Positions 1,204-53,771 of a stretch of 64,000 nucleotides of DNA are shown piece after piece. How positions within the stretch are numbered: position 1 is the first letter of the stretch; each line of letters starts with the position of its first letter. Under the pieces are notes generated by a model, which did not search any database, was not told the origin of the DNA, and worked only from the letters and a program-made list of their open reading frames with translations. The position numbers and the translations under genes were made by a program. This DNA comes from Eledone cirrhosa. Taxonomy: Eukaryota. The DNA lies in the NCBI GenBank assembly GCA_964016885.1, contig OZ024740.1, forward strand, positions 209,002,001 through 209,066,000, in the 5' to 3' direction.

Positions 1204-4200
1204 GTAAGACGAATTTATAAATCTTAAAATATTTTAAAAGAAATATTGTTAATAAGATCATGATTATTCAGACTATTAATTTTATTTTTAGAGATGAAAC
1301 ATTAAATATATATATATATATTGAAAAGGGTCCGCCGAGCTGCGGATTATAGAGTCGGGTAAGATCGATACAGATCGAACCTTGAGCTGATCAGTGGCGA
1401 AAAGCGCGTCACCTACCAATAAATGTAATGAAGGAGTAACCAATCGTCCTTGTTATCTTATCAATATAATACACTCTGTATAGCTCTACACCTCGACACA
1501 GAAGTGAACCTAAACATCGAGTGCTCACCCGGGTGAACCTACACTAACTCCAAGTTACACTCTCTCTCTCTCTCTCTCTCTCTCTCTATATATATATATA
1601 TATATATATATATATATATATATAATAGAATAATCGAGTATCGGAAAATCAGCTCACGAATTAACGATAAACAAATCCGATATGAGTGGCAGAGGGCTCA
1701 ATAATTTGGATAAATCAGAGCTATAACTATCGTTAAATTACCAACACATAAAGATTAAGCCTAAAATCACCCGTGCAGCCGAAAAAAAACGACCAGGAGG
1801 ATTCGGGTCACTCAAATAAAATATCAATAAATCAATAATTTAAATGAATATATATATATAGAATATAAAACGAAAAATCAGTGATGCGTCTGAACTCAAT
1901 TTATTGTGTGTTACAATTGTTTCGCCGGCGGACAGCTCGAGACGTGATCATTGTGTGGATCTGTCTGATTCTGGATCCGCAGGTTCGACGGATACGTCTA
2001 ATGATTTCGGAGCAAATTCTCTCACTGGGGTGTTAGCGTCAAAAACATCCTCTTCGCGCGTCCTGTTATTGCCTGCTGTTTTTCTACGTCGTCATAATTC
2101 TGACCAACAAGTGTCATTCGATGAATTACTACTGGGTTTGGTAGTTCACACGTCCACGCGCGCCCACACACACACATATACACACACACACACGCACGCA
2201 CACACACACAACCACATAGATAACAATATCCATACGCATAGACCCCCGCTATATACACACACTTAAGGAGAACATAAAAAAACTATAGACATACGCATAC
2301 ACAGACGCCTGCCTACATGCTCATAAACAGGCACAGATACAGACTCGCTCACAAACACACACACATATATATATATACAAACAAGCCCTTTCGCTACATT
2401 GGGTGCTTGTACACACACACTGGCTCATATACACTCTTACAAGTATGCGCATATTCACATACAGGCCCACAAAGATATATACATATATATATATACAATA
2501 TATTAATAAATGGAAACTATATTTATAAAACCATATTTATTTTATTATACATATTTCAAGGGCCACCAAGGCAAATTATGGTGCGCTTTCATCAGATAAA
2601 ATACAGATTTGTTTTATAAATAAATATTGACATACCCGGAAAAAATGACAACCTTAACGGTTGGAGCTTCCTGGATACTCAAGGGTATGTCAATATTTAT
2701 CTATAAAACAAATCTGTATTTTATCTGATGAAAGCGCACCATAATTTGCCTTGGTGGCCGTTGAAATATGTATAATAAAATAAATATGGTTTTATAAATA
2801 TAGTTTCCATTTATTAATATATTGTGTATTTACTCCACCCATTGTTGAGTGCTTTATATCAGTTATAAAAAAATTGAAGCTTGTTGAATCCCAACAAATT
2901 AAATATAACCTCTGCATATATATATATATATATGCAGAGGTTATATTTAATTTGTTGGGATTCAACAAGCTTAAAACAAGCTATATATATATATATATAT
3001 ATATATATATATATATATATATATATATATATATATATATATATATATATATATATATATATATATATATATATATATATATATATATATATATATATAT
3101 ATGGAGAAGTTTATGAAATGGAAATGCGGGTATACAGAATTTATTAGGTAACAATTGTTTCTATAGTGTATGGGTTACCTATACCTCGCTATTTGAATAA
3201 TATAAAAATATTATCATAAACCGAAGGTACACTGTAAGCAAACACACCATGTCGTCAGACCTTTGTATTGGAATGATATGAAAATATGTTATACACGAGA
3301 TAAAAGAGAAAGAAGGAGGTAGGAAGAGAAGGGGAAGAGAGAAGTGAGTAAGGTGGAGGGAGTCCTAGGATTTAAGACTGTCAGACTAGTAGAGATTGTA
3401 AGGAGAGAATGTTTTGGCAGCAGTTAGCTTAATGAGGCGTGTTAGGGTTGGCGGGGGAAGTAAATTCTTCTAGTGGTGTTGTTCGGACAAAATTTAGTTA
3501 AAGGGGTCAAAGTGGTACAGAGTCACAGACAAGTTATTGGGGCTATTAGAGTAGCAGGTTATTTCTAAAGGGGTCCAGAAAACAGTGTTTAGTACTATTA
3601 TTATAGAAAGCCATATCTTGTGTATAAACATATAAAACAGAAATTTGCAAACGGTGGTGTAAAAAGGTAACATTATATGCATTTAAAAAAAGAAAAAGTC
3701 GTTTTCAAACGATGGTTACAGTATAGAGAACGTTCAATTTTGCTGTTCAAAAGTTTGTTTACCGACGTTAAAATGCAGTATATCTCCAAATTGCATAACT
3801 TGCAGAATCGATGATTTTGCTTATATATATATATATATATATATATATATATATATATATATATATACACAAATAGGATATATACACAAAGGTCATATAA
3901 AGATACACAATGGGTCATACAATGGGTCTTTTTTCTGTGATATATATATATATATATATATATATATATATATATATATATATATATATATATATATATA
4001 TATAACAGAAAAAAAGAGAATCAGTGTTGCGACGAATGGAATTTATTGGACATATTACAATCGTTTCTCTGGCGACCAGCTCGAGGCACGATCGATGTGA
4101 TGATCGAACCTGACTCTGAAAATCGCAAAGTCCTCAGATACGTCTTGATTCTACGAAGGAAAATCTGCTTCGTAAAATCAAGACGTATCTGAGGACCTTG

Positions 4201-7200
4201 CGATTTTCAGAGTCAGGTTCGATAATCACATCGATCGTGCCTCGAGCTGGTCGCCAGAGAAACGATTGTAATATGTCCAATACATTCCATTCGTCGCAAC
4301 ACTGATTCTCTTTTTTTCTGTGATATCATACTCTGCTCTATGAGAGCATCGAGTGCTCATACGGCCTACCGCATACGGACACTTTAAGCATCTATATACA
4401 TATATATATACATATATATATATATATATATATACACACACATATATATATATATATATATATATATATATATATATATATATATATATAATTTTATATA
4501 TATAATAACAAAGCAAGTTTGTTTTGAAACAGCGAGCGAAGTTTGAAATAAAGTAGAAATATAAGCTTCCGCCGTATTTTGACCAAAGAAATTAGCTTGA
4601 TGGTGGGGATTTTTAAAAATCCTCTGAATGGAAAAAGATGAGTTTTGACGTCAAAACTCATCTTTTTCCATTTAGAGGATTTTAAAAAATCCCCACCATC
4701 AGGCTAATTTCTTTAGTCAAAATACGGCGGAAGCTTATATTTCTACTTTGTATATTTAATATATAAAATATTATATATTGCCGCTCTATTCACTCTCCAA
4801 ATATACCATCCGGGACACCCGCATGAAATACATTTTCTACGCTAATTTATATTATTCGTCTCAATCCACCAATCTCCTATATACTCTATCTGATAATCCA
4901 ATGATTCTTTTAATACACAAAGCTCCAATATATTTTGTCCATTATTCTTTCGATTCTGAAAATCCAAAGGAACTAGTAAACCTCTTAAACTCCCTTAAAG
5001 CCCCATTATGTAACAGAAAATATTGATTATGTAACATTTCTGTCGAAACTATCACACATGCCATTAACAGCTGTCCGAAGGTGTCATCAAGGTATTACCT
5101 CCTAATACGGCACGATGTTATTACTAAAACAATATTCAATGCCATCCGTAAAAGACTGTTCCTGGATAAATATAGAGAAACCCCTTCTTTTTTTAAAGAT
5201 ATACATATCAACACAAGTAATATTGGTTGAACTTTCCCATTAAAAGTTCCACGTGCAAATATAACAGGTCAGATATAGTTGTTTGGGACAAAAAAAGAAT
5301 ATGTACTATTGTAGTAGCCAACTGCCCAACAGATGTGAACATTTCATATAAAAATCGGTGAAAAAAAATAGTAATTATGGACAAGTATTTCAAAATCATA
5401 TAAATTCTCATTTATACAGATAATTATTAGTGTTAATAAATAAGTGACAATCTAGAAAAGGTAAGGTTTTTAAGCGAAGAAATTGACTAACTAACGCTCT
5501 CTTCATAAATACAAACTGTTAGTGGAACAGTAAAAGTATGCAAGACTTTTCTAAAGTTCAGCATGTGACATTCATCATTTTTATTATCCAAATTTCAACG
5601 ATGGATCTTTGTTTATTTGTTAGAAACCAGCTTCCTTCCTTATAGGAAGAATTCAAATTTATTAAAAAAAAGGAAGAAACCAACACACACACACACACAC
5701 ACATACATACATATATACATACATGCATGTTATATATATATATATATATATATATATATACATATATATAATCACACACATAATATAATCTTTTTCTCTC
5801 ACTCACTCGCTCACTCTCTCTCTCTCTCTTTCTGTGTTTATATATATATATATATTATTATTATTATTATTATTATATATATATATATCAGCATTACACA
5901 ATATTGTGTCGGCTACCGACTGGTTTTAAGCCTAGCGCCGATCTTTTTTAATGGAGATTGTATATTTCTATATCTGTACGATTATCCGAAGACTTCAAAG
6001 TTTTCGAGTGTTTGAGCGGTAAATTGCACGGAAAAATAAGTAAAAAAAAAGAAAATTATATATAATATGGGAGTACACTTATATAAACAAACCTAGAATG
6101 ATAACTTATCTGTTATATATAGTTAAGTTATCAACCTTGATATCGCTGTATATGAATTGTCAGAAGTAGCATATAGATGGATATTTGTAAGGTTGAAAAG
6201 ACTGAAAAACCTATCCATTACATTATATCTTAGAAGTAATTACAGCTCTATATTAGGTAACTGGGTATCATAGGATGTATTGTCGCAGGAGATAATGTGT
6301 GAGGCTTAAAGATTTTTAAAATATTTGTCACCGTTGTTTGCGTTACCATTTTAGATGACAATTGGTGATAAATCTATTTAAAATTGAAGTATGAAAAATA
6401 GATTCCACCATAATGGATCCGTATGGTATGGCTATGTTTTACGTGAATATATAGGAGCATGGTGTTTATAGTCGGATATGATTATGTGGTGGTGGGAGTG
6501 CTTTCAAGAAGATGTCAATCATAGTGGGTTCGTCTTCAAAGTTAGCGGATATTCTGGAAGGTTGCTTTTACAATGATAAAGTAGATACTTTCTAAAATTA
6601 GAACAAGACGAAAAGTATTTTGTTCTTAGATGTGATGAATTCATTCGGGGATTTCAAACCTTGAAGAACTGGATATTTTCAGTTGTGCAAAGCCCAAATC
6701 TCTTGGATTCGTTGATATAGGCTTTAGAAGTTCCAAGGACTCTCAATTTCATATTGCTGTTTATACTTCTGTATTTCGAAAATAATCTTTTTTGAACGCT
6801 AATGGTCAAACTCGACTGGTCAAAATGATAGAGTATTGGGCAGTCAGCTGACGTGATGGGTAGCATAATCTCAACTGTGCTGAGTCTAATGTCAAGAACT
6901 TATTTTTATATAGTCTCTGCTACAGGCAGGTAGCACAGTGTAAGGAGTAGTGACTGTTACACGCAGTAACCGTACTTTAACATGGGTGAATATTTCGCTG
7001 GCTTGCAATTCTGTGTTCACCTGTTCCTGCGATTTATAGCTCGAATAAAGATGGTTCTGCGAAGATGACTTTCTCAAGACATATTACACAAAGCTTAGAT
7101 GTTCAATGGTATTCCCACATATAGCAAAATGATGACTAAGTATTATGCTACAGTGGCGAATACAGTAAGCCGAATTTTACAATCAGATCAATTCTTGTTG

Positions 7201-53017: not shown

Positions 53018-53082
53018 TATTTTATTATACATATTTCAAGGACACCACGTTAAATTATGGTATGCTTTCATCAGACAAAATA
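53018..53082 (-). ncRNA. Type I hammerhead (family A) in a short fold-back copy (52977-53245)
   Basis: TATTTTGT-CTGATGA-AAGC-ATACCA..TGGTGT-CCTT-GAAA-TATGTA-TA-ATAAAATA. Confidence 0.78.
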
Positions 53083-53771
53083 CAATATATATCAGAAATA
53101 TGTATAATAAAATAAATATGGTTTTATAAATATAGTTTCCATTTGTTAATATCGTATGTTTACTCCAAATACTTGTTGAGTGCTTTATATCAGTTATAAA
53201 AATATTTGCTTGTTGTATCCCAACAATTTAAATAGAATTTTTGCATATATATATATATATATATATATATATATATATACTGTATATATATATATATATA
53301 TATATATATACTGTATATATATATATATATATTTATATATAGGAGGAACAAGATACAAGAGATAATTATTATAGTAGAAATAAATAGTAAAGGGTAAAAA
53401 AAAAACCATAATGGAGATTAAATCTCCCAAACGTTAGAGTTAATTGGTGAGGTGACAAGATTCAGATGATGGAAGATATACTGTTATGGGTGGGTGAAAA
53501 GATAAGATATATATATATATTGGCGTGTCTAAATTGTGCTGTATAGCGAAAAGGTAAATTTTTTGGCGTTGTGCCAATATAGGAAGTTTCTATCGTTACC
53601 ACCATCATCATCATCATTAACATAATCGTAGTAATCCTCGTCATCATTACCATCATGTGTGTGTGTGTGTGTGTGTCTGTCTATCTGTGTGTGTGTGTGT
53701 GTGTGTGTCTGTCTGTCTGTCTGTCTGTGCACTGTAGTACACACTTGGTATAAATATCTAAGGGTTTAGAG

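Follow-up and report, generated by a model that had tools for sequence, protein, structure and literature searches.

Hydra-clade Penelope-like elements (PLEs) carry two tandem hairpins, here called S1 and S2, that likely act in RNA as docking sites setting two internal starts for reverse transcriptase (RT). The hairpins were studied in a 64,000-nucleotide (nt) stretch of the Eledone cirrhosa genome (assembly GCA_964016885.1, contig OZ024740.1, positions 209,002,001 to 209,066,000, forward strand; hereafter the window, numbered from its first letter), which is full of PLE ends in (TA)n, and in copies elsewhere in that genome and in marine metagenomes. In template-type copies, which comprise a pseudo-long terminal repeat (pLTR), a 5' untranslated region (UTR) and an open reading frame (ORF), S1 and S2 lie in tandem, downstream of the hammerhead and upstream of the start codon. 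Genomic ends fall about 1-9 nt before S1 (short, tail-less ends) or about 1-9 nt before S2 (long, tailed ends). Because copies end before one or the other hairpin, the PLE "tail" is S1 plus the spacer. The twin hairpins and this end rule are found in five families of the genome and also in relatives from marine metagenomes, whose proteins are ~47% identical.

PLE insertions consist of an inverted, 5'-truncated copy, one end of which may carry an extension that corresponds to sequence past the pLTR in tandem units (PMC8557442; PMC3846280; the papers cited here were available in part, and statements about them refer to those parts). The tails in E. cirrhosa have this character, occurring at one end of the inverted insertion and equalling the sequence past the pLTR in tandem units. 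Family M provides a worked example within the window. On the minus strand, a template-type (read-through) copy carries S1 at 31317..31342, about 2 nt past the family's short end, and S2 at 31235..31254, 88 nt after S1 and 2-6 nt past the long (tailed) end; downstream of these come the hammerhead core at 31059..31107 and, at 30848, a short end within (TA)n. The unit is short (about 497 nt), tandem-like and non-coding. Ends of this family were mapped at 30 loci in the genome (two of which overlap, and the query favours long and read-through copies) together with a random genome set, after 7 low-complexity matches were dropped. Short ends, lying 1-7 nt before S1, numbered 22, and long ends, lying 2-6 nt before S2, numbered 23; another 19 copies read through, and 1 end lay elsewhere.

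Other families show the same relation. In the ORF1 family, S2 lies directly past the long end (10 long ends, 9 read-through copies), and tandem copies run on into S1. For the families of an initial annotation of the window, which had described a single 3' cassette, an S2 past the long end was predicted before searching. It was present in 294 genome matches of family A, a few of them in microsatellites, and in 357 of family C, with reversed-pattern controls giving 0 in both cases; it was found once in family D (L137) and twice in the ORF2 family (L006, L030). The single cassette gives way to two hairpins, the second of which is absent from most inserted copies.

Ends join (TA)n via a TATA-like overlap, and no poly(A) was found at the mapped ends. 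Placing the short end exactly at TA|CTC, as BLAST ends implied, proved wrong; after allowing for the (TA)n overlap, the end and the stem are about 2-9 nt apart, with the end first. Short ends of the ORF1 family (L148, L201-L209 and window positions 37930-37945) vary in the number of additional CT units that precede (TA)n, from 0 to about 15, and TTTTTATAA is sometimes repeated at those of the ORF2 family. Such repeated terminal units could reflect reiterative copying at the start, that is, priming with slippage, or compound targets. At one locus (L328, G000:C4:369999855-369999991), the family B tail occurs three times in tandem as 83-nt units, as if RT had jumped back from S1 to the second start. 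At another (L166:7922-7955), an S2-type hairpin opens the tail of a different palindrome, which hints that the family may have a third usable end.

Tails were also collected independently of the motif, from 139 evenly spaced 10-kb stretches and the window. Here, a tail was the sequence past the second arm of a palindrome, where (TA)n precedes a first arm that is found again further downstream as its reverse complement. The pattern NCTC-x...x'-TN-GAGN' was found within -6 to +12 nt of the junction in 53 of 141 tails, as compared to 0.44 in shuffled sequences and 0 at each of two positional controls. The two kinds of end are also paired: of the 71 inverted pairs that the window and the random set contain, 63 were short+long, 3 short+short, 1 long+long and 4 unclassified. 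Given the overall counts of 142 short and 124 long ends, only 33 short+long pairs would be expected under independence among the 67 that were classified. By eye, the long+long pair and one of the short+short pairs are misassignments. Pairing is biased for rare families, but not for large ones, because families were defined from asymmetric palindromes. In the smallest palindromes, the inversion centre lies at or beside the hammerhead core (window positions 24282-24381, 29901-30058, 30603-30758, 52975-53157 and 58692-58795).

The conserved hairpin consists of NCTC, an upper stem, a 2-nt bulge and GAGN. The initial annotation had given the motif as TACTC...YGAGTR; its stem is real and covaries, but the true unit is longer and excludes the leading T. 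Covariation was counted in a set built with sequence-only anchors, in which near-copies were collapsed to 70 clusters (53 from the metagenomes and 17 from the E. cirrhosa genome); the invariance of CTC/GAG is built into the anchor, and a few remaining mis-anchored rows depress the pair counts. The three pairs above the bulge, of which the first is pair 5, were Watson-Crick in 60, 48 and 42 clusters, versus 33, 22 and 17 after permutation, and the 2-nt-bulge register gave 150 pairs, versus 42, 28 and 40 for bulges of 0, 1 and 3 nt. The first pair of the hairpin was G-C in 44 clusters, A-T in 9 and T-A in 2, and the bulge read TT in 42, TC in 18, TA in 7 and TG in 3. On a tree of 36 proteins, which excludes L249 and L272, pair 5 of S1 swapped between T-A and C-G 4-5 times, with at least two swaps forced by well-supported branches. 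This pair is mostly T-A in S1 and mostly C-G in S2, which argues that the two hairpins are old and distinct. Alignment A2 (47 rows, comprising 44 of the 62 listed cluster rows and 3 window sites) gave a covariation score of 0.327 versus 0.103; however, its rows were picked by hand, so the score leans towards structure and the 70-cluster count is fairer. RNAalifold by itself retrieved just the 4-bp lower stem. Base pairing is thus maintained by compensatory change, as would be expected of an RT-binding RNA element. No Rfam family reached its gathering score at the hairpins, the search returning just microsatellite-driven microRNA matches and one weak hammerhead.

The metagenome comparison covered 78 loci of relatives, 45 of them with sufficient 5' flank. 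A hairpin was present in 34 of the 45 flanks, and two hairpins, 55-83 nt apart, in 23, as compared to 18 of the 536 windows taken from ORFs and 7 of the 45 flanks read on the reverse strand. When the flank included a hammerhead core (28 loci), two hairpins were found in 21 cases, one in 5 and none in 2. The first hairpin lay 42-80 nt past the core, except at one locus, where the distance was 181 nt, and the two lay about 130 and 65 nt upstream of the ORF match. At a 60% protein-identity cut, the 21 two-hairpin loci form 14 groups, with a median identity of 47%. Ends inferred by comparing the 3' copy at a locus with its 5' counterpart fell 0-9 nt before a hairpin in 11 of 17 cases, where 1.4 would be expected. 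S1 and S2 are spaced anywhere between 55 and about 170 nt apart, while the distance from end to hairpin holds at about 1-9 nt. By eye, the published Hydra-2_Amil and Hydra-2_Ajap consensus sequences have a hairpin after the hammerhead, Hydra-1_Ajap starts with a hairpin and Hydra-1_Crog contains a partial one; the readings of Hydra-1_Amil and Hydra-1_Obim are ambiguous.

Judged by their motifs, the coding pieces are Hydra-type PLEs. This clade is marked by a change of DKG to DKT, by RWK, by a CxCX5C linker, by CxxC and CxH near the C-terminus and by the absence of CCHH; its members are generally shorter than 3 kb, which is a tendency rather than a strict rule (PMC8557442). In the window, ORF1 (33879..36312, plus strand) encodes a Hydra-type RT and GIY-YIG endonuclease; it is frameshifted and 5'-truncated, and the short end of its copy is at 37932. 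ORF2 (43684..45177, plus strand), also a 5'-truncated Hydra-type PLE, is continuous with a 3' end at 46900. Elsewhere, the ORF1 family includes young, intact 830-amino acid copies, with YRDD and a C-terminal IYSC..TYIG in a single ORF; Pfam gave no match for the PLE ORFs, and RT and GIY-YIG were judged by these motifs. DKT and RWR, a conservative variant of RWK, are present in the ORF1 family and family C; the ORF2 copy lacks the N-terminus. The cysteine motifs read CNCRSSRTC, CNLC and CQH in ORF1 and CNCRLSNSC, CNLC and CPH in ORF2, and CCHH is absent by eye. Insertion into (TA)n and a hammerhead in the pLTR, its cores recognized by pattern only, likewise agree with the Hydra clade. The units of the ORF1 family (about 4.3 kb) and of family C (3.54 kb) exceed the usual length. 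A pattern match at window positions 37760-37830 (plus strand) corresponds to an ORF1-family hammerhead that has a long stem II and reads TTGATGA, with U in place of C3.

We initially regarded all of the short elements as non-autonomous families, a description rejected for B and C, which are truncated ends of coding elements; one family B copy leads into a Hydra ORF, and every ORF that could be linked to the window sites was Hydra-type. Two loci (C1:91476594-91487267 and C1:437200343-437210982), each with four near-identical family C units of 3.54 kb arranged head to tail and with their frames open, are probably active sources. Among the collected tails, 12 copies are of another, motif-free type and belong to a PLE family that looks Neptune-like by its cysteine motifs only and whose ORF pieces fail to match the profile of Hydra. 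Neptune-like families (L047, L051, L089, L119, L122 and others) have a 55-60-nt tail starting near TTTCRACACACG, which is unrepeated in L036, the sole read-through copy of these families that was seen.

The initial annotation had suggested a cis signal for the PLE RT, a proposal now supported by covariation, by conservation at ~47% protein identity and by a position directly 3' of both ends; the RT itself may be what binds the hairpin. Together with the variable spacing and the end pairing, these observations suggest the following model. A transcript would read through the pLTR into the 5' UTR of the next unit, and the RT-endonuclease protein would bind both hairpins, possibly as a dimer with one subunit per hairpin. 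Both strands of the (TA)n target would be nicked, each 3'-OH would pair with the UA-rich bases ahead of one hairpin and prime complementary DNA (cDNA) there, and the two cDNAs would meet 5' to 5', giving a head-to-head inverted insertion. Because each hairpin lies 3' of its own start point, it would remain uncopied. S1 would stay in the long arm as the tail, none of the arms would keep the S2 at its own end, and full templates would persist only as tandem or pLTR-plus-5'-UTR copies. If the hairpins tell RT where to start, the one-sidedness of the PLE tail would be explained. More tentatively, this may amount to programmed twin priming, in which one dimer holds the two hairpins of the same transcript, nicks each strand of (TA)n and starts two cDNAs, one ahead of each hairpin, a proposal that we put at somewhat short of an even chance. 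In vitro, Poseidon from Anolis uses two internal RT starts that match tail ends and requires the RNA 3' of them; both DNA strands are cut and extended, and a dimer is predicted (PMC11167929).

Several results weigh against docking hairpins as the determinants of RT starts. No junction hairpin was found in 88 of the 141 tails, which include other PLE types, false palindromes and decayed copies (sorted in part), and 6 of the 17 metagenome ends lie more than 9 nt from a hairpin or have none (two at 11-12 nt, four elsewhere). Long ends of family B are regular but have no canonical S2, its read-through copies showing instead a short GCAC/GTGC stem with no bulge, and exact-pattern searches found no S2 for families E and F. 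Poseidon starts are reported inside an AC-rich stem-loop, not ahead of one (PMC11167929). The hairpins are also weak, with a mean of about -4 kcal/mol, and some window copies have alternative folds. Finally, neither folding energies nor wobble pairs (10 G-U versus 7 C-A) separate the RNA from the cDNA strand.

The hairpins might instead act in DNA, with cDNA or donor DNA extending past them and the GIY-YIG endonuclease cutting a few bases beside each, such that the ends would be cut sites from resolving an intermediate rather than start sites; the folding energies and wobble pairs are compatible with this reading as well. Consistent with this idea, the tail has been ascribed to endonuclease-mediated resolution (Craig 2021, PMC8557442), and the D. 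virilis endonuclease is cited as requiring the tail for plasmid cleavage (PMC11167929). We nevertheless consider it unlikely: as DNA the hairpins would fold with just about -1.9 kcal/mol, and tail ends coincide with RT start sites in the one PLE that has been reconstituted (PMC11167929). The TATA-like overlap with (TA)n and the repetition of (CT)n or TTTTTATAA also fit priming, although compound targets could give (CT)n as well. The same two genomic ends would be expected if the hairpins directed RNA 3'-end formation 5' of each, with RT then starting by ordinary target-primed reverse transcription. AATAAA does follow the hammerhead in several elements, as the initial annotation had remarked, but it occurs in only 3 of the 5 copies with an exact core and is missing from the other 2. 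The absence of poly(A), the start of the Poseidon enzyme inside its template (PMC11167929) and the pairing of short with long ends, which independent RNA ends would not yield, make this explanation quite improbable. The position of both hairpins in the 5' UTR, close upstream of the ORF match, is what would be seen if they were a promoter or 5'-UTR element for the downstream ORF, with ends set only by the TATA-like target overlap, and a TATA-like promoter has been proposed for pLTRs (PMC3846280). However, many TATA-like stretches in these regions are unused as ends, and the end distance keeps to about 1-9 nt despite the variable S1-S2 spacing. Moreover, a double-stranded promoter would not covary, and the non-coding family M unit retains both hairpins; we therefore regard this as very unlikely.

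We give almost no credence to the view that the motif reflects recent shared ancestry or chance matches beside microsatellites, although some results point that way. The loose pattern TACTC-N3-70-YGAGTR was rejected as a genome-wide signal, its frequency lying within the shuffle range: it occurred 55 times in 600 kb of evenly spaced stretches, versus 41-80 times in 10 shuffles, and 13 times within the window, versus a mean of 5.5 and a maximum of 20 in 50 shuffles. By common flanks, the 11 window sites reported in what the initial annotation had called unrelated families reduce to six families; one site is a private variant. In contrast, conservation extends beyond recent ancestry, the hairpins being kept in the 14 metagenome groups with repeated compensatory swaps, and the excess in 5' flanks over ORF windows already contradicts a chance origin. 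The enrichment relative to the hammerhead that the initial annotation had put forward as a check is also seen, a core lying within 250 nt upstream in 11 of the 55 loose matches, among which copies are non-independent, versus a 2% background.

Other systems offer partial parallels. In long interspersed nuclear elements (LINEs) with stringent RTs, such as eel UnaL2 and R2, a 3' stem-loop recognized by the RT, which it probably recruits, is shared with the corresponding short interspersed nuclear elements (SINEs). These are likewise short 3' signals in which bulge and loop identity matter, but LINE stem-loops lie 5' of the start and are copied with each insertion, whereas the Hydra hairpins lie 3' of the start, are duplicated and remain uncopied in the copy that they would prime. 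In telomerase, an internal template is placed by neighbouring, uncopied RNA structure, and the primer is aligned to a simple repeat by a few base pairs. The likeness lies in an uncopied positioning structure beside the template, and we claim no homology; telomerase copies a short template repeatedly up to a boundary, whereas a PLE copies hundreds to thousands of bases. The PLE RT is sister to TERT (PMC8557442). The 497-nt family M unit resembles non-LTR retrozymes, short hammerhead-bearing units proposed to be mobilized by PLEs (PMC7229834; bioRxiv 10.64898/2026.07.22.740005). In the parts available, those papers give no cis signal for the PLE RT, and several of the short families found here are truncated ends of coding elements.

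The tail, the inverted structure, the Hydra clade and two-site initiation have all been published; new here are a cis element and an end rule within a known class. Published PLE tails share the inverted structure, the one-end extension and, for the Hydra clade, (TA)n targets. They are 30-40 bp long, and the available text names no sequence or structure that sets their ends (PMC8557442; PMC3846280), whereas those described here span about 55-170 nt, the short and the long end each have a conserved hairpin of their own, and the one-sidedness has been counted (63 of 67). By eye, the Poseidon template lacks NCTC/bulge/GAGN in this form. A literature search returned no account of the hairpins in the accessible parts of the papers covered, including PMC4209133 and PMC7229834; most subscription papers and Repbase notes were outside its scope.

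Within the window, all 11 stem sites of the initial annotation exist where it placed them, except that the one at 43133 reads AACTC rather than TACTC. They belong to family A (2831, 24184, 49803, 53161), family B (30580, 41059, 58660) and four single families (4329, 40369, 43133, 46831). As redefined here, S1 of family A lies at 2832..2850 (plus strand, in a tailed arm whose tail-less inverted partner ends near 2488; hammerhead core at 2725..2766, plus strand, 64-65 nt before S1), 24187..24206 (minus), 49804..49823 (plus; inverted short end near 47428) and 53162..53181 (plus; inverted short end near 52970). Family B has S1 at 30581..30603 (minus; degenerate upper stem), 41060..41078 (plus) and 58661..58679 (minus; inverted short end near 58808). 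On the plus strand, S1 of family F is at 4330..4354 (inverted short end near 3996), that of family E at 40370..40409 (hammerhead core at 40265-40301; inverted short end near 37947) and that of family D at 43134..43193 (long insert; inverted short end near 41597), the last being undetected by the covariance model. The site at 46831 did not hold up as a shared stem, TACTC being present in 1 of 30 family copies, the window's own. The conserved site that replaces 46831-46865 is S1 of the ORF2 family at 46807..46828 (plus), 24 nt before 46831, where GCTC..TT GAGC, a GCTC/GAGC form, is retained in 28 of 30 copies; the family's hammerhead core at 46713..46740 (plus) is a weak Rfam Hammerhead_1 match (E 0.11). 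The hammerhead that the initial annotation placed upstream of its sites is present as an exact same-strand core in 5 of the 11 copies, and the remaining copies are 5'-truncated or mutated.

About ten further hairpin members in the window had been missed. One is S1 of family C at 41183..41206 (plus), at the 3' end of a coding 3.54-kb element; another, with a long insert, belongs to family D (23306..23365, minus). S1-type hairpins occur in family K (30393..30438, minus) and in further families at 23527..23562, 40569..40595 and 1696..1721 (all minus), with others at 1473-1522 (plus) and 32023-32065 (minus). The window also contains a young LTR retrotransposon (54169-58428, plus), with 305-bp LTRs that are 99% identical and gag-, protease-, RT-, RNase H- and integrase-like frames, and an abundant SINE-like family of ~190 bp (857-1041 and about 15 other places). 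Broken DNA-transposase frames at 26688-28151 (minus) presumably belong to a hAT/Buster-like element, Pfam giving nothing for the piece scanned, and a fragment at 59570-59992 (minus), which had no Pfam match, looks like the endonuclease region at the C-terminus of a different non-LTR element.

These findings bear on how PLEs integrate and why their copies are inverted with a tail at one end, and they turn the question of integration into one of point mutants of S1 and S2. They provide a rule for curating element ends, as the Hydra consensus sequences in print break off ahead of S1 or S2; identify the genomic copies that are still able to serve as templates; and suggest which cis signal might allow short hammerhead units to make use of the PLE enzyme. 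If the proposed mechanism is true, twin priming would make the inverted, one-tailed insertion an obligatory product, and the RNA guide would stay uncopied, as in telomerase, which would explain why only more-than-unit copies propagate. The hairpins would then constitute a portable signal of ~100 nt for microsatellite-targeted insertion, and other PLE clades may obey the same rule with other sequences.

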